Shown here in pieces: positions 1 through 29,009 of a stretch of 33,299 nt of DNA. Under the pieces are notes generated by a model that had not been told where the DNA came from, made no database searches, and saw nothing but the letters and a program-made list of their open reading frames with translations. How positions within the stretch are numbered: position 1 is the stretch's first letter; every line of letters starts with the position of its first letter. The position numbers were made by a program, and so were the translations under genes. The stretch comes from Chrysochromulina tobinii. Its lineage: Eukaryota. Location: assembly GCA_001275005.1 (NCBI GenBank), contig JWZX01001549.1:1-33299 (forward strand), written 5' to 3'.

Positions 1-793
<793 letters not shown>

Positions 794-2345: not shown

Positions 2346-4228
2346 ATGCAGACCACGCACATTCTGCTCGCGGCCGCCGCATCCGTCAGCGCCGCGTTCA
2401 TCACCGCTTCGCCGGCGCTCGTCCGCCGGCCACAGCTCGCGCCCCTCTCGGGACCCGTCTGCTGCGCCGAGTCTGGCGCGACAAACGATCCGGTGCCGAA
2501 GCCGCCGTCGAAGCTGCCTCAGCGCGAGATCGATTCACGCGGCTTCATAGTGCCGCAAGTGGGAGACGTGGTCAAGATGCCCTCCAAGTGGGAAGGCGAG
2601 TGGGAGGTCGGCCAGGTGGACTTCGTCCAGTACGTCGGCTCGCGGAATGCGTACGAGGTCGACCTCCTCCCTCTGAAGTCGATCGGCAACGACCTCTACC
2701 GGCTGCCCGGCAAGAAGCCCTCGTTGATACGGACCGACGTGGCGAAGCTCGGCCGGCTGCTCACCGAGTACGTGCCCGAGCGCGACGCGTACCGCGTCAA
2801 CCCCGACGACCTTTTGCCGACGGGCGGGCGCAAAGTCGAGAACCCGAGCGTCACGGAGCAGGGCCTCGCAGAGTATGCTGAGCTCAAGGCGACGCTGCTG
2901 CGCGAAGCGGCGCTCCTCGGCGTGGCGGGCACGGCGGTGAGCTTGCCCTTCTTCGGAGGCGATGTCGCTTTTGCCTTCGCGCTAGGGGCGGCGGGCGGCT
3001 GCGCGTACCTGGCACTGCTGCAGCGTGAGACGGATGGACGCGAGGGCATGGGCAGGTTGCTCGCGGCCATCGTCGGCGGCCGGCTAGCGCTGCCCGCGGT
3101 CGTGATGGCCGTGCTTGCCAGCCGCGGCATCGCCGCCAAGGGGGGGCAGTTTGACTTTGCGCTCGTACGCGCCGCACACGCGCGCGCGCTGCCGACCGTC
3201 CACCACCAACGAGCGTCATCTCGAGCGTCATCTGCCACCACCGCCGCCGGCACCAAGGGGCTGCGTTGCCGGCACCTTGGCAGCACGTCGCTCGGGCGCG
3301 CGCTTCCCCATAGGCGCTTCCCCACAGGCGCCTCCACACAGGCGCTTCCCCGCGCACTCCCATTGACCAACACGCGCGCGCTCGCGCTCACCGGCAGGTA
3401 CCTCGCGACCAGTTCGGGGCAGCGGTGCTCGGCTTCCTCGCGTACAAGGCGCCGCTGCTCGTGCGCCAGGTCGGCACCGCTCTCAAGGAGCTCGCGTCTA
3501 ACGAGGGGTCACAGGCGCCCATTGAGAAGTCTATGAGCGGCGGCTCCCTCAGCCTGATGGCAAAGCTCGCCACCGCCAACTTTCAACAGCGTCAGCGCGC
3601 CGCAGCCGCGGCGGCGGGCGCGGCGGCAGGCGGCCCCGGCTCTGTGTCGGCGGCGCGGCTCGTGGTGCTGTGCGGCCCCTCTGGCGTGGGCAAGTCGACC
3701 CTCATCGGGCGTCTGCTCGCAGAGTCGCCCGAGCGCTTTGGCTTCTCCGTCTCGTGCACCACGCGACCGCGCCGCCCCGCCGAGGCCGACGGCGTCGACT
3801 ACAGCTTCGTGACCGAGCCCAAGTTCGACACGATGATCGAGCGCGGCGACTTCCTCGAGTGGGCAAATGTGGGTAGCTACCGGTATGGTACCTCGGTCGC
3901 GGCGGTCGAGGCGGTGAGCGCGAGCGGGCGCGTCTGCCTCCTCGACCTCGACGTCCAAGGCGTCCAGTCCCTCGTCGAGCGCCGGCCCGACTTACGCCCC
4001 TACTGCGTCTGGGTGGCCGCGCCCTCGCTCGACGCGCTGCGTGCGCGGCTGCGCCAGCGAGGCTCGGAAGCGCAGGGCGACGTCGAGCAGCGCATCGCGC
4101 GCGCCGTTGATGAGATCGAGTTCTCCCTCTCCGCGCGCTGCTTCGACAAGGTCGTCCTCAACGACGACTTCGAGAGGGCGTACGCCGAGCTCAAGGCGGG
4201 CATCGACGAAGCGACGATGTCGTCGTGA
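2346..4228 (+). CDS. Plastid-targeted CGL160/Atp1 (AtpI/UncI)-like membrane protein fused to C-terminal guanylate kinase (exons 2346-3164 and 3398-4228, about 549 aa)
   Basis: Leader MQTTHILLAAAASVSAAF plus transit-like segment. Atp1/CGL160-like motifs EYAELKATL, GGCAYLALLQRETD, RLALPAVVMAV, VLGFLAYKAPL. GK motifs LCGPSGVGKSTL, FSVSCTTRPRRPAEADGVDYSFV, FLEWA..YGTS, LDLDVQG. Confidence 0.85.
3165..3397 (+). other. Intron (233 nt, phase 0) with internal 14-bp tandem repeat
   Basis: GTACGC donor, TTGAC branch-like site near 3363, GGCAG acceptor; splicing joins the 2034 and 3425 ORF frames (FDFAL|VPRDQFGAAVLGFLAYK). Confidence 0.85.
3300..3353 (+). repeat. 14-bp tandem repeat, about 3.8 copies
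   Basis: gcgcttccccatag / gcgcttccccacag / gcgcctccacacag / gcgcttccccgc. Confidence 0.85.
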
Positions 4229-4712: not shown

Positions 4713-4939
4713 CGAGGATCGGTACTGTTCAAGTTTACATCGCGAAAGTAAAATTCTGAATAATGGGAAAGGTGACGAAACCTCCCAATCGTACAATCGT
4801 CTGATCCCTGCTCGTTAACGGTGTCCGCCTCGGGTCTCGTCACACAAAATTTGACAAAGTCGCCTCTTTCACTGGCTTTCGGTGACGCACCCCGACGCGG
4901 CCTCGACCGCGCCGGCGACGCCAGCGCCCGCGTCAACAC

Positions 4940-6582
4940 ATGCACAAGCGTGGCATGGTGCCCGTTCTGTGCGCCGCTTTCTGCTCCGCGCAAATAGTCA
5001 CGCGCACCGAGTACGTGTATCGGCCGGTTGGGCAGCAAGGCGGCGGAGGAACTTTTTCCGGCGTAGTGCCGGGAATGGTCCTCGCTGCGGGCAGTGCGGC
5101 GCTCTTGTGGTGGAATGAGGGCCGCACGGCGGCACAGGAGCGCCTGCTTGCAAGCGCCAACCGCAAGCTCGTGCACGCGAGCGGCACCGACGCGCTCGAT
5201 CAGGCCAACGATGGCCGCCTCGTGCACCTCTACTCTCCCACGGTTTTCAGCACGGGCGTCACCGACAGTTTATTTGAGGACGTGCGCCGGCCAAAGGCGG
5301 CGCGGCTGCGTCGTCTGACCGAAGTGTACCAGTGGGATGAGACTTCGAGCACGCACGAGGTACGCATCTCTCGCGACACTGTCCAGCGCACGACCTCGTA
5401 CTCCTATGACGCACGCTGGCGCGACCACACAGTGGGAAACGCATTCCACGACGGTGGCCGGCACCACAACCCTACGCCGCGCCTGGTGCCGAGCATAGTG
5501 CTCACCACGGCGACGGACGCCCGACTCGCCAACGGCGTCTCGATCGAGCCCGCCTTGCTCGAGCAACTCGAGAGCTGGCATCCGGTGCGGCTACGGCCCG
5601 GGGCCGCTGACGAGGAAGGAGAGGCGGCGGAAGAGGCGTCGGCTGCGCGTGAGGCGGCGGAAGAGGCGGCGGCGGAAGAGGAGGCGGTTGCGGAGGAGGA
5701 GGCGCCTGGGCACGAGGTGGAGGGGCGGGTCTCGTCACATTCACATTCACAGGTGGAGGGGCGGGTCTCGTCGGCGGTCGTCTCATTGAGCGCCATTGAT
5801 GGCGCAGCGATCGCGCCTCTAGATGGGCACTCGTCGCAGGCCGAGTGCATCTACTTTCCGGTACGGGGATTCGCTGGCGACGCGGCTCGCAGCAGCGGCA
5901 GCTGGGCGCTCGCCGACGGGCCAAGCATGCCGCTGCCCCGCTCGGTCGGTGCGTACTTGCACCGTGAGCGCCGTCTCAGTGCGTCGCCCATGGCCCGCCT
6001 CCGCCTCGCACCGCGTGCGCAGGTGGGTGACGGCGCGTGTGCGATTCGACGAGGGTACCTTGGCCGTCGGAGGGAGTGAGCGTGCTCGCATGCCAGGCGA
6101 GCCTCACAACGCTTGCCCCGTGGCGCGACCGTTTGGGTGGCGGCGGCCCTTCTCTGTACATGCTGCTCCCGGGGCGCGTGCCTGCTTGCGAGATGCTCCG
6201 CGCAGCACGTGCGGCCTCCGTGCGGTCGATGTGGATGCTGCGCGGCGCCGGCGCGGCCCTCATGTGGCTCGGGCTCGGGTGCAGCTTGAGCTGGCTGCCC
6301 GCCCTCGCTGCCCGTCTGCCGCTCCTCGGAGGGCTCGCCGGCTCCCTAGCCGGCGCGGGCATCGGGATCGTCTCCTTGGGTGGTGCACTTAGCCTCTCCG
6401 CGGGGGTCGTCGCGCTTGCGTGGGTGCGCTACCGGCCGTGGCGTAGCGCTGTGCTCGTCGCGATGGCTGCGAGTGCATACTGTGCCCTTGCCAAGGCTGC
6501 CGTTGCTCTCCACGCCGCCCAGTCGCTCGGGCTGCCCAACAGGCAGCCAACGGCCAGACTGCGCGGCCAACAGCCCTTCTGA
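4940..6582 (+). CDS. TMEM43: TMEM43 (LUMA/DUF1625)-like membrane protein; reading frame broken near 6032-6054
   Basis: LLWWNEGRT, NDGRLVH, LRRLTEVYQWDE, YSYDARW, HHNP in ORF 4940. C-terminal TM block WMLRGAG...LPLLGGL...VVALAWVRYRPW lies in the 6037 frame. Confidence 0.85.
5715..5772 (+). repeat. 22-bp direct repeat (36-bp period) inside the TMEM43-like CDS
   Basis: aggtggaggggcgggtctcgtc at 5715-5736 and 5751-5772, separated by acattcacattcac. Confidence 0.9.
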
Positions 6583-10109: not shown

Positions 10110-10545
10110 ATACGCGCCACGAGATCGTCGAACACCTCGCCGACGACCTCATCGGACGACTTGACGCCGCGGCCGCCGCCCGTGCGTGGCTGCAACGAGA
10201 TGAACATCTCAAACATGCCTGCGGACTCCTTTGTTTGGAAAGTGATGTCCGCGTTCAGGTAGAGTCCGAAGATCTCGGGACGGTCCAACGAGCGGAAATG
10301 AACTGGCGGTACGTGTCGATCTGCACCTCGGGCGGCGCGCAGTACCGGAACTTGGCATCCATCTGCGAGCAGTACGATAAGGTCGTCGGCTGCGCGATGG
10401 TCTGCGGGTCGAGGTACGACGAGACCATGGCGCGCGTGAGGCGCACGTCCTGCTTGTCCGTCACGCGCCCGCCGTAGATGACGTCCGACATGATGATGTT
10501 GAGCGCCTCCCACGGCACCGACAGGTTCTGGTCGAGGAAGAGCCT
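10110..10545 (-). pseudogene. Dynein heavy chain fragment (AAA6 lid to start of C-terminal domain), frameshifted
   Basis: RLFLDQNLSVPWEALNIIMSDVIYGGRVTDKQDVRL...TYRQFI, frame break near 10290, then DRPEIFGLYLNADITFQ...LQPRTGGG. Left boundary is approximate. Confidence 0.88.
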
Positions 10546-10566
10546 CGAGGAAGAGCCTCGAGGAAG
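10532..10566. repeat. 13-bp tandem repeat (2.7 copies) at the inversion junction
   Basis: tcgaggaagagcc tcgaggaagagcc tcgaggaag. Confidence 0.9.
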
Positions 10567-10568
10567 GT

Positions 10569-10766
10569 CCTCCAAAGGGCCTCAAGGCCAACATCGGCCG
10601 CTCGTTCATCGTCATGGATGAGAGTACGCTCGAAGGATGCGCACAGCCGACCGAGTTCAAGAACCTGCTCTTCGGCCTGTGCTTCTTCATCGCGGCCATT
10701 CACGAGCGGCGTCAGTACGGCGCGATCGGCTGGAACATCGCGTACCAGTGGATGACCTCCGACCTC
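10569..10766 (+). pseudogene. Dynein heavy chain fragment immediately upstream (in the protein) of the minus-strand fragment, inverted
   Basis: PPKGLKANIGRSF...FKNLLFGLCFFIAAIHERRQYGAIGWNIAYQWMTSDL matches the dynein pattern EPPxGLKAN...LxFFHAxxxERRxxGxxGWNxxYxFxxSDL. Confidence 0.9.
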
Positions 10767-10786
10767 ACTTACCGCGTATTGTACGA

Positions 10787-11506
10787 CTACACGCGCCCAG
10801 CCAGCTTCGCTTCGATGATTTGCCTGAGCTCCTCGCGCTCGCGCAGGCTGTCTAGCTTGGCGCGCGCCTGCTCGAGCGCCGCCTCGATCTGCTCGCGGTC
10901 GCTCGCGCTGGTGGCCTCGCCCTCGGGGTCTCCCTCAGCCTCGCGCCTGAGCGCCTCAAGCACGGCACGCGTCGCGTCGGGCGGGATCTCGACGCCGCGC
11001 TCGCTCAGGAACAGCTTGAGCTGCGTCGTGGTCAGATGCTTCGCCTTCATGCCGCTGCTGTTCGAGGCGCGCAAGGCGCGCGAGGGCGCCGTCGCTGGCT
11101 TCGGCTCGGGCGCTGATGCGGCCGCTGCCGCCGCTGCCGCCGCTGCCTCGAGCAGCAATGCCTGCTCGACAGCCTGCTTCTCGGCGTCCGCCTGGCGTCG
11201 GTGCTCCTCGACGCGCTCGCTGAATTTCATCTCCAGTTTGCTCGCACGCACTGTCGATGGTGAGGCAGGCTCTGCTGGCCCATTTGGTGCAGGTACCGGT
11301 GGTGGAGCTTCTGCCAGCTCGTTAGGTGCAGGTGCAGACGACGGAATCTCTGCTGGCTGGTTAGGTGGAGGTGCCAGCGGTGGAGCCACTGCTGGCGGCT
11401 CGGCTGCGGCCGTTGGCTGCTGAGCGTCCGGCTCGGGTGCCTTGGCGACGGGGCTGGTGAACTCATCCGGCTCGGGCGGTCGCGTGCCGCTGTGACAGCA
11501 TCCCAT
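10787..11506 (-). CDS. Hypothetical protein (239 aa): N-terminal MGCCHS acylation motif, Pro/Ala linker, coiled coils, short helix-extension-helix-like motif
   Basis: MGCCHSG start; charged helical segments; LTTTQLKLFLSERGVEIPPDATRAVLEAL resembles SAP/LEM/Ish1-type motifs. Confidence 0.7.
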   Translation of the reverse strand: MGCCHSGTRPPEPDEFTSPVAKAPEPDAQQPTAAAEPPAVAPPLAPPPNQPAEIPSSAPAPNELAEAPPPVPAPNGPAEPASPSTVRASKLEMKFSERVEEHRRQADAEKQAVEQALLLEAAAAAAAAAASAPEPKPATAPSRALRASNSSGMKAKHLTTTQLKLFLSERGVEIPPDATRAVLEALRREAEGDPEGEATSASDREQIEAALEQARAKLDSLREREELRQIIEAKLAGRV

Positions 11507-15762: not shown

Positions 15763-16186
15763 CTATGTTGGACAGGAGGCGCCAGAAAGCAAGGGTCAAC
15801 ACGCGTCGGAGTTGCCGCGACTGAACTTCACAGCGACATGGAAACACGACATGGATCCTGCTTGGATCCCGCTAACGCATGGACGGAGGCATGGCCGAAA
15901 CAACCTTGCACGGCACACACAGACCATTTACATTGTAAAAGCACGCATGATTCAATTGTAAAAGCAAGACGATGTGGCGCGTTTACAATACATGTATCCA
16001 GGCTCGGGGCTAGCCATGCCAGTTGCGCCGCGGCGCGCGCGCGCCCTCCCCACATCTCGCATGGCGGGCACTGGTGGCGGGGGGGGGGGCGTTTGAATTT
16101 GACTTGTCTTGTCTTGACTTGACATGTCGCCCGCTCGCGCGGAAAGAGAGCGTCCCGGCCGCGACCGACGGCCTCGACGCACGCAC
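15763..16186. promoter_or_regulatory. Divergent WASHC4 / ATM-like intergenic region with repeated motifs
   Basis: ATTGTAAAAGCA at 15932 and 15955, inverted TTTACAAT at 15982, G-run near 16079-16089, pentamer array 16097-16124. Confidence 0.5.
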
Positions 16187-19100
16187 ATGTCGTCTCAGGC
16201 GGTGGCACGGCGCGCCAAGCTGGCGGCTGCCGACGAGGCCCAGTCGACGCTCCGCCAGCCCGCCGAGCTCAATCAGCTGGTCGATGAGCTCCAGAACCGG
16301 CTCAAGGAGGGCGGCAAGGAGGGCAAGGTCAAGTCGGCGAACGAGGCACTCAAGGAGCTCGTCGATCTGCTCGTGTCACACAAGTACGCGCGCGCGCACG
16401 GTGCCACGCTGCGCGACAACGCGAGCGCCAGCGCCGGCCGTGTGCCAACTTGGGACAGCGTCCTGAAGTGCACGCTCTTCTGTCTGAGCGTGTCCAAGAA
16501 GCTGCTCAAGGCGTTGGTTGAAAAGCTGCGCCTGCTCCTCGGCAAGGCACTCGAGGCCGGGCCGGGCGCGCTCCGCCCGACGAGTGAACTGCGCGTCTTC
16601 CTGTACGTGTGCCAGGAGCTGACCGACCGCGGCGGCACGGAGGCGCACGCGGCGCCGCGAGCTCCCGCGAAGAATGACGGCAAGTCGGCGCACCCCGATT
16701 GCATCGGCGTGCTCCTCCTCCTCGCGAGCGAGCGGCCGCAGCTGCTCGCACGCCTCTCGCCCCTTAGGCGCAAGCTGCTGCTCAACCAATGCATAGAATG
16801 GATCATTGGAGAGCCGCCTGGCGTCGATGGCGCTGGCGGCGGCGGCGGCGACGGCGCGGACAGCCGCTCAGACGGCATGGGCATAGGCGGTGTTGGTGCC
16901 AGCTCTAGCCGCGCGCCCGCGGGCGGCGGCGGCGGCATCGATCCGAGCGTGGTGGCGACGCCGCAGCTCCTGGTGCAGTATGCCCAGCTGCTCTCTCAAC
17001 TCGTAGGGGCGTGGGGCAGCGATATGGGGGTCCTCGAGAGCACTGGCGGTGGGCTGGAGGCGGGCGACGACGGCCCGTTCGCCCTGCTCACCGGCTTCAT
17101 GAACGACGTTTGCGAGAAGGAGCTGCCGTACCTACGCAAGATGGCCAACCAGCTTTGGTCCGCCACGCTGCATGCTATCCTGTGCCACGGCGCCAACGTG
17201 CTGCACGAGGTGGCGGCGTTTGGGCTGACCCCGTGCGTGCTCGAGCGCGTGCTGCGCGAGTTGCGCGAGGCCGATCGGGGTGGCGCGCTTGCCGAGACCC
17301 TCGCGAGCTTCGCGCGCTGCCAGCTCGCCTGCGTGCGCCTCTGCGGGCTCGCGCTGCCCGTGACGAGCGCACGCCAGCTCTCACATCTCGTCGAGCTCGA
17401 GCTCCGGTCTGCGAGCGCCTTCAAGCAGCCGGCGGCGCTGCTGAGCACCGCAGAGCTGAGCGAGGAGCGATGGCGTGCACGCTCGCTCCTACAGCTCATC
17501 GCCGACGTCCTCGCACTCCACCGGCCGCCGCCCAGCGCTGCCGCCGCGAGCGCCGCCGCGAGCGCCGCCGCGGGCGTGGCCGCCGCGGGCGCTACCGGGG
17601 CGGGGGCGTCCAAGCGGCAGCGCACCTCGGCGAGCGTGCCGCTGAGCACGCTGCTTCTCGAGGCGGTCCGTGCGCCCGGTAGCCCTGAGGAGTACGGGCG
17701 CTGGCTGCTCCTGATCGGATGCCTCGCTGAGCGCCATCCGGGCGCCCTCACGCCCTCAGTGCGCACGGCGCTCGTCGAGGCGCTCACGGCGGAGCTGCCG
17801 GTGGCGGACGGCTCGGTGGGTGGCGGCTGGGGGCGCCTGCCGCTCCTCGCGTGGGCGCTTGCCGGCCTCGCGCTGCTCGAGCCGCCGGGCGCAAGTGCGC
17901 CGCGCTGGGTGAGCCTCTGGCGCAGCTTACACGCACTCGTCGCTCTGTACGAGCCGGGCACGCGCACTCTCTACGCGGGCGGCGGCGACGGCGGCGCGGG
18001 TGGCGCGTCGGGCGGCGCAGGCGGCAGCGGCGGTAGTGCTGCTGGCGGCGCCGGCGGTGGTGGGGCGGCGGGAAGTACGGAGCGTCTGTGCTTCGTCGAC
18101 CTGGGCGCGCGCTGCTTGCGCGTGATGCTCGAGCGGGGACTTCTCCCTCCCTCTGAGGCCGCCGCCCAAGCCGCCTCCGTGATCCACTCATCGCCCCTCT
18201 TCGCGCCATTGGCCGTGCGCACCGCGGGAGATGCCACCGCGGCGGCGGCTGAGGGTCGCGCCTACCTTCGCTCGATGGTGGAGCTGAGCGCCGTGCTCGT
18301 CAGCGCAGCCGAGCGAGGCGTTCGCGCGGTAGACGAGGGAGCGGCGGCCGGTGGCGGCCGCGGCGGCGGCGGCGGCGGCGGGGCTTTCGACCGTCGGCGA
18401 CTGGTGCGCTGGCTGACGGAGCGCATGTACTGGGCGCCGGTGCAGCCAGCTTTCGAGGCCACATCTCCCTGGCGATGCGCGCTGCAGCTGCGTGCGACGC
18501 GGGCCGCGTGGGCAGCGGGCGCCGAGCACCTTCTGCTCCGGCGCGTCTGGTGTGCTGTCGTCACCGGTCATGGTGGCGGCGGCGCGGCGGTGGGCGGCAC
18601 GCTGCTCGGTGTGCCCGCTATCTCGCCCGGGGCGTGCGCTCTGCCCGTGACGTGGCTCGAGCGACCGTATAGCTCGGGGAGCGAAGGGTATGATCCTCTG
18701 CTCGGCGCCGCATCGGACGCGAGCTGGCGCCCCTCCGACCAGGCCGCCGGAGTGGCCGCCGCGCCGCCGTGCCCGCCGCGGCTGCTGCGCCGCCTCGTGC
18801 CGCTGGCAACGGCAGCGGGCGGCGGCCCGGTGGGCGCGGTGGACGAGGGCTGCGAGGAGGAAGAGGGCGAGTGGGACGAGGGCGGCGGTGGGAGCATCGA
18901 GGGTGTGCCGATGGGGCTGCTCCACCTCGAGGCCTTCCTACGCCACGTCGAGGCTCTCTCATCCAACCCCGCCCCCGCCGCCGCCGCCGGTTGCGCTGCG
19001 GATGGTGGCGGCGGCGGAGGCGGTGGCGGAGGCGGCATTGCGCTCGGGGCCCTCGGTGCGTACGCGAGCTCCGCGTCCCTGCTGGGTGTGGCTACGTACG

Positions 19101-22100
19101 AGGAGGAGCGGGCCGCGGGGCGCGTGAATGGGTCGCTCTCTCACGCGCCGGATGAAGGCACCGATGAGTGCGCCACAATGCCTGAGATCACGCTCGGGTT
19201 GCTCAAGGAGGCGAGCAAGCGGCTGGTGGCGGCTGCACCCTCGGAAGCCGCCTCGCCCGCCGACCCGGGGGCGCTGCGCACGATCATGCACGGGCTGCGT
19301 CTCGTCGAGTTCGCAGCGGCACTCATGCTCGCCACGGGGCCGCGACGCGCGCCAGAGGGCTGCATAAAGCTGCTGCAGAAGCAGCTGCGTAAGGTGGCGT
19401 CCTGGCTGCGGTGTACGCTGCCGCACGCGGGGCCTGATGCGTCACGAGCAGAGATGCTTGCCAAGGTTAAGGGGTGGGCCCGCGCCTCGCGCACGCTCCT
19501 CGCGTTACGCTCATGCCTCGCCATGTTCGCGGCACTCGCGGCTGACACTCGCGGCGGCACGCAGCGCGGATGGCATGTGGTGGTGGCGCCCTCATGGCCC
19601 GAACCTCTCTACGTCGCCATGGCCTCTGAACCTCAGACCCTCGTCCACGGCGTCAAGCTGCTCTGCATCGCGCGACAGGCGCAGCAAGCGGCGCGAGCTG
19701 AGGCCGCCGCCGCGGGCGGCGGCGGCGGCGGCGGCGGCATCGGCATCGGCGGCACAACAGCGGCTGCGGAGGCGATGGACGTTGACGAGTTCGAGCTGCA
19801 AGTGCCGAGCGAAGCTGCGAACGCGAGCGCCACCGCCTCTGGGGCTGCTACCTCGACTTTGCGCGAGGAGGGCGGCGGTGGCGGCGCCACTAGCGCGGCA
19901 GAAGAGGCGGAGGTGGGCGCGGCGCTGCATGCCATCCTCAGCTGCCTCGACCTGTGGGCGCTCGGCTTCGGCTCGGTCAGCGAGCGAGTACTCGTGGCGC
20001 TCCCAGCCGCGCTCGAGGGGCTCAGTGCGGCCGCGCTGCGCACTAAGCTGCTCGCGCTTCGCACGCTAGCCACATGCATGCGGGCCACCCCCACGCTCAC
20101 CCAAGCTCGGCGTGCGTGGCCTGCCGCGGTTTCGCCGAACCCAGCCACCGCGCCCGCCGTCGGGGGGCTTCTCGGGGATATGGACGTGGGCGGCAGCACG
20201 GTGGTGCGCAACCTGCCCGCGCCCGTGGCGGCTCTGCTCGAACCTTGGCTCTTGGTGGCTGACTCAGCCCTCTTCGGCGACGTGACACGTCGGCTGAGTC
20301 ACGCGAAGAAGCACGCAGCCAAGCTTGAGCTGCCGAAGCCCGAGTGTAGGGAACAGACAGCGGATGTGGAGGCTAAGATCGCCGCGGCCGCCGCCTCGTG
20401 CGACGGGGCCCTCCGGCGCGCGCTAGCGGTGCTCTGCCGCTTTGCACGCGCCGCGCCTGCCACGCTGCCGGCAGGCGGGAGTGCGTGCGAGCTCCGCGCG
20501 TACAACAAGCTTTGGACGATGTCGCTCGGGGTGGCAAAGGAGCGTGGCGACTTTCGCACCATCGTGCGCGACCGTAAGCGCATGCTGCCGCTCACGCCGG
20601 CGGCGCGGCTCGCGCTCGTCGAGGCGCTGCATGCACACGTTGAGATGATGGAGCGGCTGCATGCAAGTGCCAAGGCCGCGGCGATGGAACGGCTGCATGC
20701 GAGCGCTTTGGCCGCGAGCAGTCGCCGTCCTAGCGAATCCACACCGCTGCTGCTCGACGGGCAGACAGTTGATGACGTGGGCGAGAAGTATGAGGAAGAC
20801 CTCTTCGACGCGCTGTATGACACGCAGTGGGCGGTGCGCCAGTGGGTCGTGCGAGCGCTCGGCGTGCTCGCCCCCACGTTCGAGCCCGAGGATCATCGAA
20901 CCTTCCTGCTTCCCAAGGCACTTGGCCCCCTCTTCGGCGTGCCCGAGAGCGCCCCGGCCGAGGCGAGCTTTGGCGTGCCGTGCTTCGCCTTCGTCGGCCT
21001 CAAGCGCGGCGGCGGCGCCAACGGCCTGCTCGCGAGCCCGTGGGGGGGCCACGGGCTTGCGGGTGCGGGCGGCGGCGGTGGTGGGGCCCTGGGCGGGGTG
21101 CCGACGAGCGCGCACGTGCCCTCGCCGTACGTGTCGCCGGCTTTTGAGGTACGTCTGACGGCGCTGCACGCCCTCGCCGCCCTCGGAGCTAGCTCGGCGA
21201 GCTGCACCGACCAGTCGCTGCTCCTCCTCCTGCTCGCGCACGGGCCCGACCCCGCCCGCGCCGCTGCCGCCGCCGCCGCTGCCGCCGCCGCCGCTGCGGC
21301 TGCCGGCAACGAGACGCCGCCGCCACGCGCAGCCCTTCGTCTAGCGGCGGACGCGGCTCTGCGCAGCATGGGGGCGGCAAGTGGGCTGGCACCGTGGCGG
21401 ATGCTGCGCCAACGGGGTCAGCAGCTGCTCGCTCTCTGGCTCCAGTTAAAGCTGCCGCTGCAGCGACTGCCGTGCACTCTCTTCAAGGCCACGCCAGCGC
21501 ACGGCACGGCCGCTGCCCTCACCTCGAGCGTCGGCGCCGCCAACGCGCCCTCCTCCTCGGGAGCCTCCGTCGCTGCTGAGGCGGATGCGAGCGCCGATCG
21601 CGACCTCGCCGCCTTTGTCGCTTCAAGCCGCATCCCTCTCGCGACAGCGGCAGCGATGGCCTCCAACGGCGAGGTCCTCACGACCGCCGCACGTGCGCTC
21701 GGGCTCGCGGGTGGTGCACCCGACCTTTTGCTCGAGGCGCTGCCGCAGGTGCTCGCTCGCCTGCTTCCCATGAAGAATGGGGCGGCTGACGAGCGCCAGA
21801 CGTACACCTTCTCGCTCGACTTTGTATGTAGCATCCTCGCACCACAGCCGCTGCACGCGTGCGCGCAGCCGCAGATGAGCGCTTTGCTCTCTTCCATCGT
21901 CCTGTGCGCCTCGGCCGAGCGCCCCCCAAGCCCACCGCAGCGCACCGTGGCCGAGATTATCGAGGTGCTCATCGCGCCGCCCGACCCGCGCGCCGCCGTC
22001 TCTCGACGACCCCTCGTCGAGTCGCTGCGTTCGCTGCCACCGGTGGCGATGCATGCCCTTGTCCTCACGGTTCGTGGCGCGATCGCGGCGGGCGAGGCGT

Positions 22101-25100
22101 CGCTCGGAGCCCTCGAGGTACTGCTGAGCGAAGCCCTCCTCTCGCCTCAGCAGCTGGGTGCCGGATGCACGCCCCACTTGCTGCAGGCTGGGCTGCTCGC
22201 CCCCGCCCACGCCGCCCTCAACCGCACCACCCTCGCACTCTGCGTGCCGCCTGCCGCCGCCGCCGCCGGCAGCAGCGCCGCGGCCGACCCGGCCGACGCG
22301 GCTGCCGCCTCAGAGAACGCGAAGGTGGATGAGCTGTCGCACGCGTGCGAGCTGCTGCGTCGGCTGCACGCGCGGCTGGGCGCCTTGGCGTCTGTGCGGG
22401 CGGCGCTGCTACCCGCGCTGCTCCGAGCGCTCGTGCCTCTGGCGGCACGCTCGGCTGCGGCCCAGGCGACGCTCGGTGAGGTGCTCCAGCACGATGTCTT
22501 CGCGACAGCCGTGGGCGGGGCCCAAAACCAAGGGGTAGGCTTGGGTGCGCGCGAGGGAGCGAGCGGCAGCCTGGGGGCCAGCCTCGAGGCCTCGTGGACC
22601 GACCCGATCGGATCGTCGGATCGGTTGCATGCCGCACTCGCCAAGCTGCCCCCGTACGAGCTGGTCACCTCGGCCAGCACGCGTGGGCTGCAGGAGCTGC
22701 AGGCGCGCCTGCTGGTCGCTCGAGCCCGCGCGGCGGACGAGGCTTCGAGCGAACGCCTTTCGGCTGCGGCGCAGCTGCTGGCATGCGAGGCAGGCGCACC
22801 CGCCCACGCCCTTGGAGGCTACCCCGCCGTCCGATTGCAAACCGCACGGCCGGTTGCCGAGGCGGCGGCGGCGGGCGGGTGCGGCGAGGCGGTGGCGGGT
22901 GCGGCGGCAGGCATGGTGCTCAGCGGCGTGAGCGAGCGCGGCGCACCTCGCTCGGAGCTCGAAGCGCGGGCTGCAGTGACCAAGGCAATCCTCATCCTCG
23001 GCTCGCCTGAAGCGCTCGAGTGCCCGACGCTCAGCGCGTGGCTCGAGGGTGGAGACGAGGTCGCTGATGAGGGCTACGGCGCCCTCGACCTGCGTGCTCT
23101 ACGGGCCGGCAGCGCGCGCGCGGCGGCGGCAGCAAGGCGCGCCGAGGCTTCGAGAGCGGCGGCTGCCCTCGATGACGAGAGCGCTCTGCACGACGGTGGC
23201 GAGGCATGGTGCCCGTGGAACGACCGAGCGCCGCTGCAGGGCATGGGGCCAGCTCGTGGGGGCCTTGACTCCCAGTCGAGGCTACAGTCCCTTAGGCGAG
23301 CACGCCGCTCGCCTATGGAGCGCACGCGGCGCTGGCTGCTGCGGCTTGCCTCAGCGCCGGGCCTCTCGTCGGCCTTACGAGAGCTCATCAGCCAAGCGCT
23401 CAGCCTGTGTGCCACCCTACCGCCGCCGCGTGCGCTTCTCGAGCCGCTCGCCTCGGACGTGCCACTTCCGCCCTCACAGCTCACCGACTGCGCGGACGAG
23501 GAGGAGGCACTCGGAGCGGCAAGGTCGGCCGCAGAGGCCGCGGGCGCAGCTGACGGGGAGGGCAAGGAGGAGGAGGAGGAGGAGGCCGCCGGCCATGCCC
23601 GGCTGCTGCGCCAGCTCCACGCGGTACTCATCTCGCCGGATGCGCCGCCGCGCCTGTGCGCCCTCGCCGCCCAGAGCCTGTGCCGAGCCTTCGAGTCTGA
23701 CGCGGCGCGCCCGGCGGCCCTGCGCGCGCTCGAGCAGCTGCATCGACAGCCAGCCGCAGCGGCCGCCTACCACCATCTGCTCCCGTATGCCGCGCTTGAG
23801 CAGCTGCGTGCCTCGTTGGCGTCGAGCGGCGCGGCAGATGGCACCGTGAGCGGCGGCGAGAGCGGCGCGAGCAATGCGGCGATGGAGGTTGATGCGGCTG
23901 CGTGGCTCGAGGCGCCGCCGCCCATTGCGTGCGCGCTGGTCTGGGCAATGGGCTCGACGGCGGAGACGCCTGCGTACGATCACGCCGCGTGGCTCTGCGC
24001 AGTAGTCAGTCCTCTGCTCGCCGCCTCAACTGACCCGCTCCTCGCCGGATGCACACCACTCGCGGCCGCCGCGCCCCGATTCGCGGCTTCGATGCTTGAG
24101 GCGGCCGTGCAAGACGTGGCGAGGCAGCCTGCTCACGCGCATGCGCTCGCGAACGCCGTGCACGCTGCCCTCGACCCTCCGGGCCTTGGCGCGATGGCAG
24201 GCGCGAGCGCATGCCCCCCTGCCAAGGCGGCCGCCCTGCTCCGCGTGATCACCTCTCTCCTCCGAAACTCTATACACGCGCCCGCCGCACCCGCCGCCGC
24301 CTCGGCAGCGCTCGAGGCCTTCTGGAGATTGCTCTGCCTCGGTCGGCTGGCCGAGGTGGCAGCGGACCATCAGATGGACGCGACGGCTCTCCTCCTACTC
24401 GAAGCCTCGAAGGCGATCGCCACCGCTACCAGCCCCAGCCACGCCGTCCCTCCTGCTGCCGCCGCCCCTAGCGCCGCGCACGAGGCGCGTGCGCTCGCGG
24501 TGCTGCGGCGTGTGCTGCCCCGCCTCGCGATGCCCGACATGGCGTTGGGGCTGCCGGCAATGGCGACGGAGGCGGCGCTCTCGGCGGGCGCTAGCGGTGG
24601 CGTGGGCGGATTGGTCGGGCTGGGCGGGTTGGTGGGCGCGCGTGGTCCGTGGCTCGTCTCGTCACTCGAACTGAGCCTGGCGGACGTGGGGCTGCGCGCC
24701 CAGCACGGCGCTCAGCACGAGCGGCTACCTGCCGCCCTCGACAGCCTCCATCGGCTGGGCTGCTATGCGCTTGTGCGCGCCGTCAGCTCGGCACGGCTGC
24801 CAATGGCGCCGCCCGCGTTGAGGGTGGCACCGGCGCCGCAGCCTGCGGGTTGGGGTGTGGGCGATTGGCAATCGGTGGCGGAGGGGCAGGCGGAGATGGC
24901 ATGGCGCCTTGGCGAGTGGACGGACGTGCGCGTGCCCACAGGGTCGGGCGTTGCTTTTGACGACGAGGAGATGTGGGAGGCGTCGCTGCCGGGTCTACTC
25001 GACGGCGGCGGCGGCGGCGGCGGCGTGCGCGCGGGTGAGGGCGGCGCCTGCCATGGCGCCTTGGCGAGCGCGCTGCGTTTGCTAGGCCGTCGCGAGGCAG

Positions 25101-28100
25101 GTTCCTTCGCTGCACTCAAACGCACCGTTGGCGGTGCGCAGCAGTCGCTGCTGGCACAGATGGTCAGCCTGCCCCCCGAGGCGAGCGGAGCGCTCGAGGG
25201 AGCGCTCCGACAGCTCCGGCTGTGCGGCACGCTGCGCGAGGGCGCGGGTGGCCTCGCATCCGAGGTGAGCATGACCGATGGGATGAGCACGCCCTGGCTG
25301 CTCCCTTTCGCGCTGGTGGCCGCCGCCCGGCAAGCCCTTGGCGGCGGCACATCGACGCAGGGGATGGCCGACACGCTCGACAGCATGGCCACCGCGGAAA
25401 GCGCCGGCGGGTACGGCGGGTACGGCGGCGGCTTTGGTGGCGCCTCGGAACGTGCGGCACGCGACGAGTGGCTGCAGTGGCGGCGCAAGCGGCTGTCGCA
25501 GCAGCTGGCGGTGCTGCCGCGCGGCGCTCCACTCGGCGAATACGAGCCGCTCGTGGCGCTGCACGTGGCGATGCTGCGGCACATGCAGCCGCACGGCTCG
25601 CGTGCCGAGCAACTTGAGCTTCTAGTCAGCGCCGGCCAGCGAGCGCGCGCCGACGGCCACCAAGCTGGCGCGCATGCCCTGCTTCGGCGGGCGGCTGAGC
25701 TCGCCTCGGCCATCGGCGGGAGCGGCAGCGCCGTTGGCGCTCCGCTCGCGTCGCAAGCGCCGTACGCATCCTGCTCGCAGCAGCTTGAGTCGGAGGGCGA
25801 GGGCTCGGTGCAAGGGGCGACGACTCAGAGTGCGCTGCGCTGGCTGCCGGCGACGTGGGCGGGCCGTTGGGAGCACGCGCTCCTGCTGTGGGACGCGGGT
25901 AGTGACGGGCGCACCGACGCCCTGCTGGTGGCCAAGCGGTTGCGTGACGAGCTTCAGGCGGCCATGGACGCAGCCGCTGGGGTGGGCGGACTGTCCTCAG
26001 CACCGAAGGCGAGCGGCGCGGCGGCAGCGGGGGGTACCGGCGGCCGGCCTCTTTCGTCGAGACACGCGACGCTCCACGTGCAGCTGCTTGCAACGCTCGG
26101 AGGCTGGATGGACGCTCTGCGGTGCGAGGGGCTGGGTGCGGTCCAAAAAGAGCTCGACACGGCGGTCTACCTATGTGATGAGCTTGGGGTGCCCGATGAG
26201 AGTGGCGCAGTGGCGGACGCACTTCTCGGGCTGGGCAGCTTCCACGAGCGACAGTTTGGCGCGTTGCAGCGTCAAGCAGATTCGTCCACCTTTGCCAAGC
26301 TCGTGTCAGTGCACGCACGCACCAGGGTTGAGCTGCGACGCGTGCGCAATGAGCTGCTCACGTTGACCGACACGGCAACCAAGGCGATCGCTCACCGTCG
26401 TAACAAGCTCGAGAATCACGCACGCGAGCTGCGTTTCGCGCTTGACGCGCTCGAGAAGGACTCGCTCGCCACCGTCGACCGGCGTTCCGAGCATCTCCTC
26501 GGCGCGATGGAGAACTACCTTCTGTGCCTGCGCCGCGCGCCTGAGGGCTCGTCGGCCTCCCGCGCGGCCGCCACGGCCGTCTGTCGCCTCTGGATGCGCA
26601 ACCGCGAGGTCCAGCCGCTCTCAGAGAAGGTGCTTGCCTTCTTCGGTGCTCATGGGCAAGGTGCCGCGCCCGCGCTCTCCCGCCCCTTTTTGCCGCTTGC
26701 TTTCCAGCTGTGCGCGCGGCTGAGCACTGCGGCGGACGCGGCGGACGCAATCGACCCACTCTCATGTGAGGAGAGCTTCTCGCAGCCGTCACAGGCATAC
26801 GATCTGCTCGACGAGGGCTCGTACGCGGCGCCCTCAACAGCGGGTGATGTGGGCGTGGCTGAGGCCGAGAAGCCCAACGATGTGCTGGCGGCGGCTGCGT
26901 TCCAGAGAGCACTGCGCACGATGCTCCTCCAGCTGAGCGAGCACGACGTCGATCGCGTCATCATCCACCAACTCATCGTGGCCGCCGAGCCTGCCGGCGC
27001 CGCTGCCGGTACTCACGATGTAGGCGCCTCACAGCAAGCGGCGGCGTCGCTGCTCCAGAAGCTGCGTGAGCGTCGACCGGCCGAGGTGGAGGCATCCATC
27101 GCCCTCGTCGGTGCCCTCCGCCGCCTCGCTTGCTGTCAGGCTCGCGCCGGCGGATGCGGCGACGAGACCCCAGCCAGCCCGCGCGCATCGTACGTTGCCA
27201 TCGCAGACGCGCTCGGCGCGGTAGGCGCCGTGGCGGGTGGCGGATCTGCACCCGACCTGAGCCGCCTGCATGACCACCTCGACATGCGCCGCGTGCCACT
27301 ACGTGTACCCCTCACTCCGGCTGGTAGCGAGGGCGGCGAGCCGGCCCTGATGGTGCGCTACCTGCCGCACTTTATACCTGTTGCCTCGGGCCGGCCGCAT
27401 GCACTCACGGGCGGGGACGGGCCAACGGCGCCGTCTTGGGCGCGCTCCAAGCTCGTCTGGTGCGAAGACGAGGCGGGCGTGCGCCATGCCCAACTGCTGC
27501 GCGCGCGCCCCGCCGGCTCTCTCGATCCTCGGCGGGATGCGCTCGGTTGGCAGGTGTTCGAGGAGCTCTCTCGGCGGCTGGAGGCGGATCCTGCCGCGCG
27601 AGCCCGTGCGCTTCGGCTACGCGCCCCGCGAGTGCTCCCCCTCGCCCCGTCCGCTGGGTTGTATGAGTGGCGCTCGCACTGCCGCTCGATGCACGCGTAT
27701 CTGGCCGACGAGCACGCACGGGCCTATGCCGAGGGGCGCGATCGGATGAAGCTGGTCGAATGCGAAGCAGCCATGCGCGCCGCGCGTGCCGCCGACGCTT
27801 TTAATGCCGCCGCCGCCGACAATGTCGTAGTCGACGACGACGCTTACGCGCAGCCTGCACTCGGCCGCCGCCCCTTGACCGTCGACGCGACGGGTTGCGG
27901 GGGCGCGGGCGCGGACGGCGCCGGCGCCGAGGCGGGCCCAGCGGTGCTTGCGGCATGGACCCGCGTGACGGCGGCCCTGACGCCACAGCTACATCGCTTC
28001 CTGCTCGGCAGCTCTCCCTCGGCTGAGGTTTGGCTCGCGCGGCGTGCGGCGCTCACGCGCTCGGCGGCGGGGGCGTCGGTAGGCGGCTGGCTGCTAGGGC

Positions 28101-28669
28101 TCGGCGATCGCGCACCGCACCGGATGCTCCTCGACAGTGCCACCTCTGAGCTCGTCCACGTTCACATGCAGCCCCTCCTCCTCCAACGAGCTGCGTGCGA
28201 TGGCGCAGACAGTGGGGCGGCTCAGGGTGGCGGCGGCGTGAGCGAGGGCGCGCGCGCGCCGCCGCTGATGCCCTTTCGGCTGACACGCGAGCTCGTGGAC
28301 GCTTTCGGGCTCGGCGGCGTCGAGGGTCCCTTCCGAGCGTCCGCTGATGCGACCCTCCGGCTGGCGCAGGGTGAGGCGTGCACGGCGGCGATCCTCACAC
28401 TCCTCGAGGCCTTCGTTGACGAGCCGATGCGCGGATGGGCCGCCGCCTCCGAGGGCGCCGCCGTGCCGTGGGCCCACGACATGGCTGCCGCCCGTGCCGC
28501 GCGGCTCGATGCTGAGGTGGCGGTGCTCCACGCGCAGCGCCGGCTGGGCGGCAAGCAGGGAGCGGCCGCTCCACTGAGCGTCGAGAGCCGCGTGCGTCAG
28601 CTCATCAGCCTCGCCACCAAGGAGGGGACGCTCGCTGCGCAGCCTATTGGCTGGCAGCCGTGGCTGTGA
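16124..28669 (+). CDS. ATM: ATM/Tel1-lineage PIKK (TAN-like N-terminus, solenoid, FAT, kinase-like, FATC) with degenerate active site; start 16124 or 16187
   Basis: One 4181-codon ORF. ATM-type motifs: PTWDSVL, AMENYLLCL, FLPLAFQLCARL, QLLR...DPRRDALGWQVF, RVLPLAPSAGLYEW, LTRSAAGASVGGWLLGLGDR, PFRLTRELVDAFGLGGVEGPFR, FATC LSVESRVRQLISLAT...GWQPWL. Confidence 0.88.
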   Translation: MSPARAERERPGRDRRPRRTHMSSQAVARRAKLAAADEAQSTLRQPAELNQLVDELQNRLKEGGKEGKVKSANEALKELVDLLVSHKYARAHGATLRDNASASAGRVPTWDSVLKCTLFCLSVSKKLLKALVEKLRLLLGKALEAGPGALRPTSELRVFLYVCQELTDRGGTEAHAAPRAPAKNDGKSAHPDCIGVLLLLASERPQLLARLSPLRRKLLLNQCIEWIIGEPPGVDGAGGGGGDGADSRSDGMGIGGVGASSSRAPAGGGGGIDPSVVATPQLLVQYAQLLSQLVGAWGSDMGVLESTGGGLEAGDDGPFALLTGFMNDVCEKELPYLRKMANQLWSATLHAILCHGANVLHEVAAFGLTPCVLERVLRELREADRGGALAETLASFARCQLACVRLCGLALPVTSARQLSHLVELELRSASAFKQPAALLSTAELSEERWRARSLLQLIADVLALHRPPPSAAAASAAASAAAGVAAAGATGAGASKRQRTSASVPLSTLLLEAVRAPGSPEEYGRWLLLIGCLAERHPGALTPSVRTALVEALTAELPVADGSVGGGWGRLPLLAWALAGLALLEPPGASAPRWVSLWRSLHALVALYEPGTRTLYAGGGDGGAGGASGGAGGSGGSAAGGAGGGGAAGSTERLCFVDLGARCLRVMLERGLLPPSEAAAQAASVIHSSPLFAPLAVRTAGDATAAAAEGRAYLRSMVELSAVLVSAAERGVRAVDEGAAAGGGRGGGGGGGAFDRRRLVRWLTERMYWAPVQPAFEATSPWRCALQLRATRAAWAAGAEHLLLRRVWCAVVTGHGGGGAAVGGTLLGVPAISPGACALPVTWLERPYSSGSEGYDPLLGAASDASWRPSDQAAGVAAAPPCPPRLLRRLVPLATAAGGGPVGAVDEGCEEEEGEWDEGGGGSIEGVPMGLLHLEAFLRHVEALSSNPAPAAAAGCAADGGGGGGGGGGGIALGALGAYASSASLLGVATYEEERAAGRVNGSLSHAPDEGTDECATMPEITLGLLKEASKRLVAAAPSEAASPADPGALRTIMHGLRLVEFAAALMLATGPRRAPEGCIKLLQKQLRKVASWLRCTLPHAGPDASRAEMLAKVKGWARASRTLLALRSCLAMFAALAADTRGGTQRGWHVVVAPSWPEPLYVAMASEPQTLVHGVKLLCIARQAQQAARAEAAAAGGGGGGGGIGIGGTTAAAEAMDVDEFELQVPSEAANASATASGAATSTLREEGGGGGATSAAEEAEVGAALHAILSCLDLWALGFGSVSERVLVALPAALEGLSAAALRTKLLALRTLATCMRATPTLTQARRAWPAAVSPNPATAPAVGGLLGDMDVGGSTVVRNLPAPVAALLEPWLLVADSALFGDVTRRLSHAKKHAAKLELPKPECREQTADVEAKIAAAAASCDGALRRALAVLCRFARAAPATLPAGGSACELRAYNKLWTMSLGVAKERGDFRTIVRDRKRMLPLTPAARLALVEALHAHVEMMERLHASAKAAAMERLHASALAASSRRPSESTPLLLDGQTVDDVGEKYEEDLFDALYDTQWAVRQWVVRALGVLAPTFEPEDHRTFLLPKALGPLFGVPESAPAEASFGVPCFAFVGLKRGGGANGLLASPWGGHGLAGAGGGGGGALGGVPTSAHVPSPYVSPAFEVRLTALHALAALGASSASCTDQSLLLLLLAHGPDPARAAAAAAAAAAAAAAAGNETPPPRAALRLAADAALRSMGAASGLAPWRMLRQRGQQLLALWLQLKLPLQRLPCTLFKATPAHGTAAALTSSVGAANAPSSSGASVAAEADASADRDLAAFVASSRIPLATAAAMASNGEVLTTAARALGLAGGAPDLLLEALPQVLARLLPMKNGAADERQTYTFSLDFVCSILAPQPLHACAQPQMSALLSSIVLCASAERPPSPPQRTVAEIIEVLIAPPDPRAAVSRRPLVESLRSLPPVAMHALVLTVRGAIAAGEASLGALEVLLSEALLSPQQLGAGCTPHLLQAGLLAPAHAALNRTTLALCVPPAAAAAGSSAAADPADAAAASENAKVDELSHACELLRRLHARLGALASVRAALLPALLRALVPLAARSAAAQATLGEVLQHDVFATAVGGAQNQGVGLGAREGASGSLGASLEASWTDPIGSSDRLHAALAKLPPYELVTSASTRGLQELQARLLVARARAADEASSERLSAAAQLLACEAGAPAHALGGYPAVRLQTARPVAEAAAAGGCGEAVAGAAAGMVLSGVSERGAPRSELEARAAVTKAILILGSPEALECPTLSAWLEGGDEVADEGYGALDLRALRAGSARAAAAARRAEASRAAAALDDESALHDGGEAWCPWNDRAPLQGMGPARGGLDSQSRLQSLRRARRSPMERTRRWLLRLASAPGLSSALRELISQALSLCATLPPPRALLEPLASDVPLPPSQLTDCADEEEALGAARSAAEAAGAADGEGKEEEEEEAAGHARLLRQLHAVLISPDAPPRLCALAAQSLCRAFESDAARPAALRALEQLHRQPAAAAAYHHLLPYAALEQLRASLASSGAADGTVSGGESGASNAAMEVDAAAWLEAPPPIACALVWAMGSTAETPAYDHAAWLCAVVSPLLAASTDPLLAGCTPLAAAAPRFAASMLEAAVQDVARQPAHAHALANAVHAALDPPGLGAMAGASACPPAKAAALLRVITSLLRNSIHAPAAPAAASAALEAFWRLLCLGRLAEVAADHQMDATALLLLEASKAIATATSPSHAVPPAAAAPSAAHEARALAVLRRVLPRLAMPDMALGLPAMATEAALSAGASGGVGGLVGLGGLVGARGPWLVSSLELSLADVGLRAQHGAQHERLPAALDSLHRLGCYALVRAVSSARLPMAPPALRVAPAPQPAGWGVGDWQSVAEGQAEMAWRLGEWTDVRVPTGSGVAFDDEEMWEASLPGLLDGGGGGGGVRAGEGGACHGALASALRLLGRREAGSFAALKRTVGGAQQSLLAQMVSLPPEASGALEGALRQLRLCGTLREGAGGLASEVSMTDGMSTPWLLPFALVAAARQALGGGTSTQGMADTLDSMATAESAGGYGGYGGGFGGASERAARDEWLQWRRKRLSQQLAVLPRGAPLGEYEPLVALHVAMLRHMQPHGSRAEQLELLVSAGQRARADGHQAGAHALLRRAAELASAIGGSGSAVGAPLASQAPYASCSQQLESEGEGSVQGATTQSALRWLPATWAGRWEHALLLWDAGSDGRTDALLVAKRLRDELQAAMDAAAGVGGLSSAPKASGAAAAGGTGGRPLSSRHATLHVQLLATLGGWMDALRCEGLGAVQKELDTAVYLCDELGVPDESGAVADALLGLGSFHERQFGALQRQADSSTFAKLVSVHARTRVELRRVRNELLTLTDTATKAIAHRRNKLENHARELRFALDALEKDSLATVDRRSEHLLGAMENYLLCLRRAPEGSSASRAAATAVCRLWMRNREVQPLSEKVLAFFGAHGQGAAPALSRPFLPLAFQLCARLSTAADAADAIDPLSCEESFSQPSQAYDLLDEGSYAAPSTAGDVGVAEAEKPNDVLAAAAFQRALRTMLLQLSEHDVDRVIIHQLIVAAEPAGAAAGTHDVGASQQAAASLLQKLRERRPAEVEASIALVGALRRLACCQARAGGCGDETPASPRASYVAIADALGAVGAVAGGGSAPDLSRLHDHLDMRRVPLRVPLTPAGSEGGEPALMVRYLPHFIPVASGRPHALTGGDGPTAPSWARSKLVWCEDEAGVRHAQLLRARPAGSLDPRRDALGWQVFEELSRRLEADPAARARALRLRAPRVLPLAPSAGLYEWRSHCRSMHAYLADEHARAYAEGRDRMKLVECEAAMRAARAADAFNAAAADNVVVDDDAYAQPALGRRPLTVDATGCGGAGADGAGAEAGPAVLAAWTRVTAALTPQLHRFLLGSSPSAEVWLARRAALTRSAAGASVGGWLLGLGDRAPHRMLLDSATSELVHVHMQPLLLQRAACDGADSGAAQGGGGVSEGARAPPLMPFRLTRELVDAFGLGGVEGPFRASADATLRLAQGEACTAAILTLLEAFVDEPMRGWAAASEGAAVPWAHDMAAARAARLDAEVAVLHAQRRLGGKQGAAAPLSVESRVRQLISLATKEGTLAAQPIGWQPWL

Positions 28670-29009
28670 GGATGTGTAGGGGAGGACTCAAAGGATCCGT
28701 CGTCGGCAGGTCGTGGCCGCGGCTGCGGGGATCGACTGGCAGGAGCTCGGCTGAGTTCCGCTGGTGAGCAACACGTACAACTGGTCAACGGGAGCACTGT
28801 TCATAAACAGTCGTCGTTGCATGCGTCCATCTCGAACGCGTACCTTTAAACGGTGGTCTAGCGCGGGTTAGGGTCAGTGAGGTTCTCGGTGGAGTAATTA
28901 GAAATTTACTTTTGTACTGATGGCGATTGCATGCACGATGCAGAACGGGGGGTTTTCAATTTTGGGTCGAGTTTGGTTTCCGTTACGTCTCGTCTTGTCA
29001 CGTTTTTCC

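Follow-up and report, generated by a model that had tools for sequence, protein, structure and literature searches.

The window analyzed here is a 33,299-nt stretch of GC-rich, eukaryotic DNA from the haptophyte Chrysochromulina tobinii. On its forward strand lies a gene of two exons (2346-3164 and 3398-4228) that encodes a protein of 549 residues (273 + 276). The coding sequence starts with an ATG at 2346, leaves exon 1 at a GT donor (3165), resumes after an AG acceptor (3397) and ends with a stop codon at 4226-4228. Exon 1 (2346..3164, +; residues 1-273) encodes a presequence, a soluble N-terminal domain and helices 1-3 of an Atp1-like membrane module, and RNA contigs begin at 2338-2346. Exon 2 opens with a loop and helix 4 of the same module (3398..3466, +), marked by a GFLAYKAP motif and corresponding to helix 277-308 in the AF2 model of a relative, P0001. 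It continues through a linker (3467..3652, +) into a eukaryote-type guanylate kinase (GK; 3653..4228, +), which has its P-loop, GPSGVGKS, at 3674-3697 and runs to the stop codon. The exon is stop-free from VPRDQFGAAVLGFLAYK through to the kinase (frame 3314-4228), and the GC3 signal changes frame at the intron, following exon 1 before it and exon 2 after it. This phase 0 GT..AG intron (3165..3397, +) is 233 nt long, contains short internal repeats (14-nt and 12-nt tandem-like units) and is frequently unspliced in contigs; if retained, it would give a 396-aa protein that has three helices but lacks the kinase. Among the matches listed for seven RNA runs, no contig used the in-frame alternative acceptor at 3313.

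The exon 1-exon 2 joint (3164>3398) was found in RNA contigs of five of the seven runs (X2, X3, X5, X6 and X7), which bears out the splice model of the initial annotation. All seven runs share a year and a library type, and possibly stem from one campaign. Among the matches listed, X1 and X4 gave unspliced contigs only. Unspliced RNA took the form of a continuous contig over 2346-3534 in X1, was also seen in X4, and appeared as separate intronic contigs in X2, X3, X6 and X7; such contigs may represent pre-mRNA or DNA. Helix 4 and the kinase were bridged in one of the seven runs (X4, contig 3352-4026), and this contig, which starts within the intron, is pre-mRNA or DNA. For the other six runs, contig breaks among the matches listed were scattered over 3514-3746, a GC-rich stretch encoding poly-Ala, and none of these matches carried a poly(A) loose end at the breaks. 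Contigs cannot reveal transcript ends, and the gaps were not counted as such. Stronger evidence for the fusion than the RNA-run contigs comes from a close relative, L004, represented by a 2025-nt contig that ends in poly(A) and is 75-78% identical in DNA sequence. L004 has no intron and holds the whole architecture in one 552-aa frame with the junction sequence unchanged. Together with the placement of helix 4 and the kinase in one stop-free exon, this contig upholds the single-frame fusion first proposed for the locus, and the fusion is real, spliced and conserved. It is very improbable that two adjacent genes or a mis-assembly have been taken for one, with an upstream gene that stops at 3534 and a kinase transcribed separately: the unspliced X1 and X4 contigs, the breaks between 3514 and 3746 in six of seven runs and the database predictions for the near-identical genes P0054, P0205 and P0208 (read-throughs of 343-398 aa) would fit such an artefact, but it is effectively refuted already by the splice in five runs, the single frame of the L004 poly(A) contig, full-length fused homologues by the dozen, the exon common to helix 4 and kinase, and purifying selection on the linker (dN 0.40, dS 1.23 against L004).

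The N-terminus carries, as judged by eye, a bipartite plastid-targeting presequence and a Pro-rich spacer (2346..2528, +), with signal-like residues 1-17 and an SAA/F site. It is the fastest-evolving part of the protein (dN 0.48 against L004). By the same kind of inspection, leaders are hydrophobic in haptophyte-like and ochrophyte-like relatives and transit-peptide-like in red-algal ones. The conserved soluble domain that follows (2529..2828, +; ~100 aa) is predicted to be a Tudor/SH3-like beta barrel, which AF2 modeled with confidence over residues 62-161 (pLDDT 90). No Pfam family matched this N-domain, and exon 1 gave no match to PDB sequences at E ≤ 10 and none in NCBIfam. Its fold matches were generic (Tudor, chromo and BAH domains): the best VIA match was to Tudor domains (Z 7.6, rmsd 1.8, 60 residues aligned), with many equal scores, all below Z 8, and the best Foldseek E value was 0.036. 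The linker between membrane module and kinase includes a poly-Ala run and a predicted helix, and at residues 322-323 it has a conserved G-S motif, which reads PGS in the group of relatives with decayed kinases described below.

Helices 1-3 of the membrane module are encoded at 2847..3164 (+), and residues ~168-296 make up the match to CGL160_C (PF24763). On exon 1 alone this profile scored 25 bits (E 2.6e-5), below its cut-off of 34.2, because helix 4 is encoded by exon 2; P0001, a full-length relative that is 69% identical across exon 1, exceeded the cut-off with 42.4 bits. Scores in other family members were modest, several falling below the cut-off (Porphyridium, 30.9 bits), and Compsopogon gave no match to PF24763 at E ≤ 0.001. 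Other Atp1/UncI families in Pfam gave no match at E ≤ 1. When the profile of the family was compared with that of green CGL160 using hhalign, the two aligned over 138 columns with a probability of 99.4% (E 1.6e-21). This alignment and the P0001 score substantiate the original assignment of the hydrophobic block to the CGL160/Atp1 group. The AF2 model of P0001 (pTM 0.58, linker of low confidence) has four long helices in the membrane module, a number that would place both soluble domains on one side of the membrane.

A careful, unrooted tree of the membrane columns (33 rows, without cyanobacterial sequences) separated the fusion family from green CGL160 plus a family linked to DUF7755, with support of 94/90. 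A quick membrane-only tree had placed green CGL160 beside haptophytes; the careful tree disagreed, and neither placement is relied upon here. The DUF7755-linked family (P0164, P0169, P0185 and P0188) also has a CGL160_C-like module and is a second family, apparently of the green lineage. DUF7755 lies at the N-terminus of both members scanned (P0164 and P0169), and the family groups beside CGL160 in the membrane-columns tree; it is possibly an uncharacterized Atp1 paralogue. A genome scan for cyanobacterial Atp1 with P0155 gave no match, and a scan with alignment A5 returned one locus only, a eukaryote-like gene in a bacterial bin; in the control genome of Synechococcus elongatus, PF24763 exceeded its cut-off. 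A bin titled as a flavobacterium (G001) holds an intron-split, green-type CGL160 gene (L001, 2650-3370). The adjoining frame presumably encodes a eukaryote-like ribosomal protein, and the two genes suggest algal contamination of the bin. Another candidate relative, L005, was a chance match.

The C-terminal domain matched PF00625 with 173.6 bits (E 4.5e-51; cut-off 25.2) and TIGR03263 with 184.1 bits (cut-off 160.45). All 19 key positions of the P-loop, GMP-binding site and lid, mapped from an alignment to yeast GK with residue roles and numbering that we assume to be correct, are present. The kinase therefore looks intact, as originally described. Among PDB sequences its best match was yeast GK (E 2.8e-48, 167 bits); the mouse and human enzymes scored 162 bits and bacterial GKs at most 118. 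The GK fold of the P0001 model likewise matched yeast GK (1GKY, 1EX7; Foldseek E 1.6e-22, 50% identity), and red-algal members and those with a decayed GK also score best with the yeast enzyme. For three family members, fungal and mammalian GKs stood above all bacterial GKs at the top of the PDB lists, and no cyanobacterial or plant plastid GK was among the matches. By its sequence, then, this GK is of the eukaryote type and not of the bacterial type found in plant organelles (GMK3/V2), and it is predicted to be active in this haptophyte.

The gene is not a one-off, as it had at first appeared, and belongs to an old family whose members occur in red algae as well as in algae whose plastids are of red origin. 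A full-library search returned 139 matches. GK was present in all 16 'longer' homologues, and precomputed annotation placed CGL160_C in 15 of them; a search for 'longer' homologues (696-2000 aa) that started from alignment A2 gave no match, which is weak evidence. Named members include Emiliania huxleyi, the red algae Porphyridium purpureum and Compsopogon caeruleus, and the ochrophytes Discosporangium, Phaeothamnion and Aureoumbra. We use the labels 'ochrophyte', 'red-like' and 'haptophyte-like' for tree position relative to these six named proteins. An N-domain together with a complete helix 4 was found in 79 of 187 proteins examined, and a GK or decayed-GK region follows in 65 of the 79, as counted with a decayed-GK profile built from family members. 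Most of the other 14 end just past helix 4 or enter unrelated tails, and three proteins (P0075, P0081 and P0140) appear to be natural GK-less forms.

A census of the 19 key residues in 58 sequences revealed kinases in very different states. Half of them (29, haptophyte-like and red-like) keep 17-19 residues, one keeps 14, and two keep 8 and 10. The remaining 26, which include brown-algal, phaeothamniophyte and pelagophyte proteins, form a decayed group with 3-12 residues, as read from an alignment of divergent sequences. Within this group of 26, the Ser and the Glu of the GMP site are each found in one sequence, as is the second lid Arg, and seven sequences have the P-loop Lys; conserved core positions of the fold are retained along with the PGS linker motif. 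In an unrooted tree of the N-domain and membrane module that omitted the GK columns (subset of rows), the 16 rows with decayed kinases formed one group (100/99), and seven haptophyte-like rows, including the protein studied here, formed another (98/97). Haptophyte-like rows, ochrophyte-like rows and the pair P0068/P0069 stood apart from the red-like and GK-less rows (98/99), and a quick tree of full mature proteins agreed. P0068 and P0069 are the two sequences with 8 and 10 residues and are sister to haptophytes (89/84); they are transcript-like, have broken P-loops (GPSEESKR and GPSEAARR) and have lost the lid arginines. A second, independent decay of the kinase is suggested by these sequences; a single origin of decay (P0068/P0069 plus the main clade) was not rejected by an AU test (p = 0.21).

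Comparison with L004 indicated that all domains are under purifying selection (dS range 0.75-1.4), with tighter constraint on the N-domain (dN 0.08, dS 0.85) and the membrane module (dN 0.105, dS 1.39) than on the kinase (dN 0.183, dS 0.75). The N-domain and membrane module also persist where the GK has decayed or is absent, and are therefore more than a mere anchor. Being more conserved and outlasting the kinase, they suggest that assembly is the core role and that fusion gave the kinase, originally an enzyme of the host, its address in the plastid.

The nearest characterized counterpart is CGL160/CGLD22 (Arabidopsis At2g31040; PF24763). Like CGL160, the fusion protein has a presequence, an N-terminal soluble domain and, over 138 columns, a homologous four-helix module, from which a plastid assembly role would follow. 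It differs in that its N-domain is predicted to be Tudor/SH3-like, the profile match to the green proteins being limited to the membrane part, in that it adds a C-terminal GK, and in that it occurs in red-lineage algae. The green-specific CF1-beta-binding N-domain is absent from the fusion family, as judged from profile comparisons that align the membrane part only. An N-domain unrelated to that of green CGL160 argues that the protein is a separately built Atp1 derivative and not CGL160 plus a kinase. Cyanobacterial Atp1 (sll1321) or bacterial UncI is the presumed ancestor of the membrane module (PMC9806626), and is by description set apart as a small stand-alone membrane protein encoded in the atp operon, without soluble domains. 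Eukaryotic cytosolic GK (yeast 1GKY and 1EX7) is the top sequence and fold match with its key residues kept; unlike it, the GK of the fusion protein is membrane-tethered, predicted to be plastid-targeted, and decayed in one clade. The decayed clade resembles MAGUK scaffolds (PSD-95, Dlg) in combining a non-catalytic GK fold with an SH3-like domain at a membrane. In contrast to MAGUKs, the fusion family is of independent origin, lacks PDZ domains and has four helices between barrel and GK, and the decayed GK scores higher with yeast GK than with MAGUKs.

On balance, we consider it probable that this protein is a plastid ATP-synthase c-ring assembly helper of the red lineage, in which four Atp1/CGL160-like helices are joined to a kinase that is predicted to be active here and dispensable in relatives. 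CFo c-ring assembly is likely to be its core job. Import into the plastid would be directed by the presequence, and the four helices would reside in the thylakoid, with N-domain and kinase both stromal by analogy with CGL160, whose N-terminus is on the stromal side (PMC9806626). Like Atp1 and CGL160, the membrane module would chaperone formation of the c-subunit ring, and the same paper states that Synechocystis Atp1 can substitute for the CGL160 membrane domain. A host-type eukaryotic GK may have been fused before red algae diversified, thereby gaining its plastid address, and in red algae and haptophytes it would likely make stromal GDP from GMP. In ochrophytes catalysis would have been lost and the fold retained, probably to serve for structure or docking; that a dead GK fold is kept at all points to a second, structural role. 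The kinase activity is thus likely to be lineage-dependent, confined to red algae and haptophytes and lacking in ochrophytes, and this speaks against an obligatory coupling of ATP-synthase assembly to the supply of GTP. A link of this kind between ATP-synthase biogenesis and plastid GTP had been proposed as the reason for the fusion and is not supported as a general one: a whole clade of relatives lacks most GMP-binding and lid residues, and three proteins seem GK-less. Import of nucleoside triphosphates into the plastid, as in diatoms, would make GK activity there unnecessary. According to PMC6995639, diatom purines are made in the cytosol, the plastid imports nucleoside triphosphates, and NTT1 and NTT2 bring nucleotides including GTP into the stroma. 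These data prompt the suggestion that nucleotide import relaxed the need for GK catalysis in ochrophytes. The same paper places NTT-type genes in haptophytes too, which retain the kinase.

Another possibility, which we regard as rather unlikely, is that the GK is a sensor coupled to assembly. It would read stromal GMP, ATP or ppGpp and gate ATP-synthase assembly, or act as the CF1 dock that the N-domain provides in green CGL160, with the decayed kinase as a pure, MAGUK-like docking form. A fold that outlives its catalytic residues in a diverse clade, with core positions and PGS linker conserved, is consistent with such a role, as is the maintenance of the fusion across red algae, haptophytes and ochrophytes. 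In green CGL160 itself the soluble domain recruits CF1-beta (PMC9806626), and ppGpp inhibits plant plastid GK (PMC10107265). That ppGpp-sensitive plant enzyme, however, is described there as an orthologue of bacterial Gmk, and the GK here is eukaryote-type. P0075, P0081 and P0140 appear to have no GK region at all, and the P0001 model (pTM and linker as above) gives no fixed domain packing. One could go further and propose that the whole red plastid lineage uses an undescribed three-part ATP-synthase factor of Tudor-like barrel, Atp1 helices and GK, and that a captured host GK lost its catalysis in ochrophytes and came to dock and recruit CF1. The outcome would be a plastid scaffold of MAGUK type with an origin independent of both animal MAGUKs and green CGL160N. 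We regard this broader proposal as rather unlikely.

A shade less plausible still is a repurposed module, in which the Atp1-like helices would have left ATP synthase to organize some other thylakoid or envelope process and tether the kinase there. The moderate PF24763 scores would accord with this, and green plants have the second, uncharacterized Atp1-like family with DUF7755, so the Atp1-like fold seems open to reuse. Two stand-alone CGL160-like proteins, P0175 and P0191, group with green CGL160 (99/94) and would perhaps be the true orthologues if they are from the red lineage. However, a named stand-alone CGL160 of the red lineage was not seen among the 139 matches (20 checked for names), and the persistence of N-domain and membrane module beyond the kinase rules out a mere anchor. 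GreenCut also gives the family, under the name CGLD22, as one that diatoms share (PMC2947710, PMC4383579), and the passages that cover it mention no kinase.

The fusion is apparently undescribed in print: we found no description of it in searches of the literature on CGL160, plastid GK and ATP synthase assembly. Among the matches listed, the red-lineage literature did not mention CGL160, and CGL160 and guanylate kinase came together in one paper, on rice YL1. Precomputed Pfam annotations already show CGL160_C and GK in combination. New here are the greater likeness of the GK to eukaryotic than to bacterial GKs, the pattern of intact, decayed and absent kinases, and the tighter constraint on N-domain and membrane module. 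ATP-synthase assembly factors have been characterized mainly in plants, and this family provides a concrete candidate c-ring chaperone for red algae, haptophytes, diatoms and brown algae, and also, for the red algae and haptophytes, a candidate for the guanylate kinase of the plastid. With the kinase intact, decayed or absent on the same scaffold, the family is a natural series in which to follow an enzyme as it turns into a pseudoenzyme. Database names such as 'guanylate kinase' or 'hypothetical' conceal the assembly module.

Several other genes surround the fusion gene in the window. A cyclophilin gene (PF00160; 1619-2170, -) lies head to head with it, and the two start codons are separated by ~175 nt. 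Among the matches listed, both genes are covered by RNA contigs and the gap between them is not, suggesting a short promoter region common to the two. Further upstream, an intron-containing gene at 1-730 (-) is, from its motif, presumably alpha-tubulin. On the downstream side are a gene for an LYR-family protein (PF05347; 4434-4712, -) and a TMEM43-like gene (4886-6582, +) that occupies two overlapping frames, matching profile positions 1-96 and 134-250, which implies an intron or frameshift near 5700-6080. An isolated fragment of a dynein heavy-chain AAA lid is found at 10503-11423 (+), and a 600-aa frame at 28902-30704 (+) has no Pfam match at E ≤ 1e-4. Between these two, at 16118-28669 (+), an uninterrupted frame of 4183 aa encodes a PIKK-type kinase with a FATC domain.
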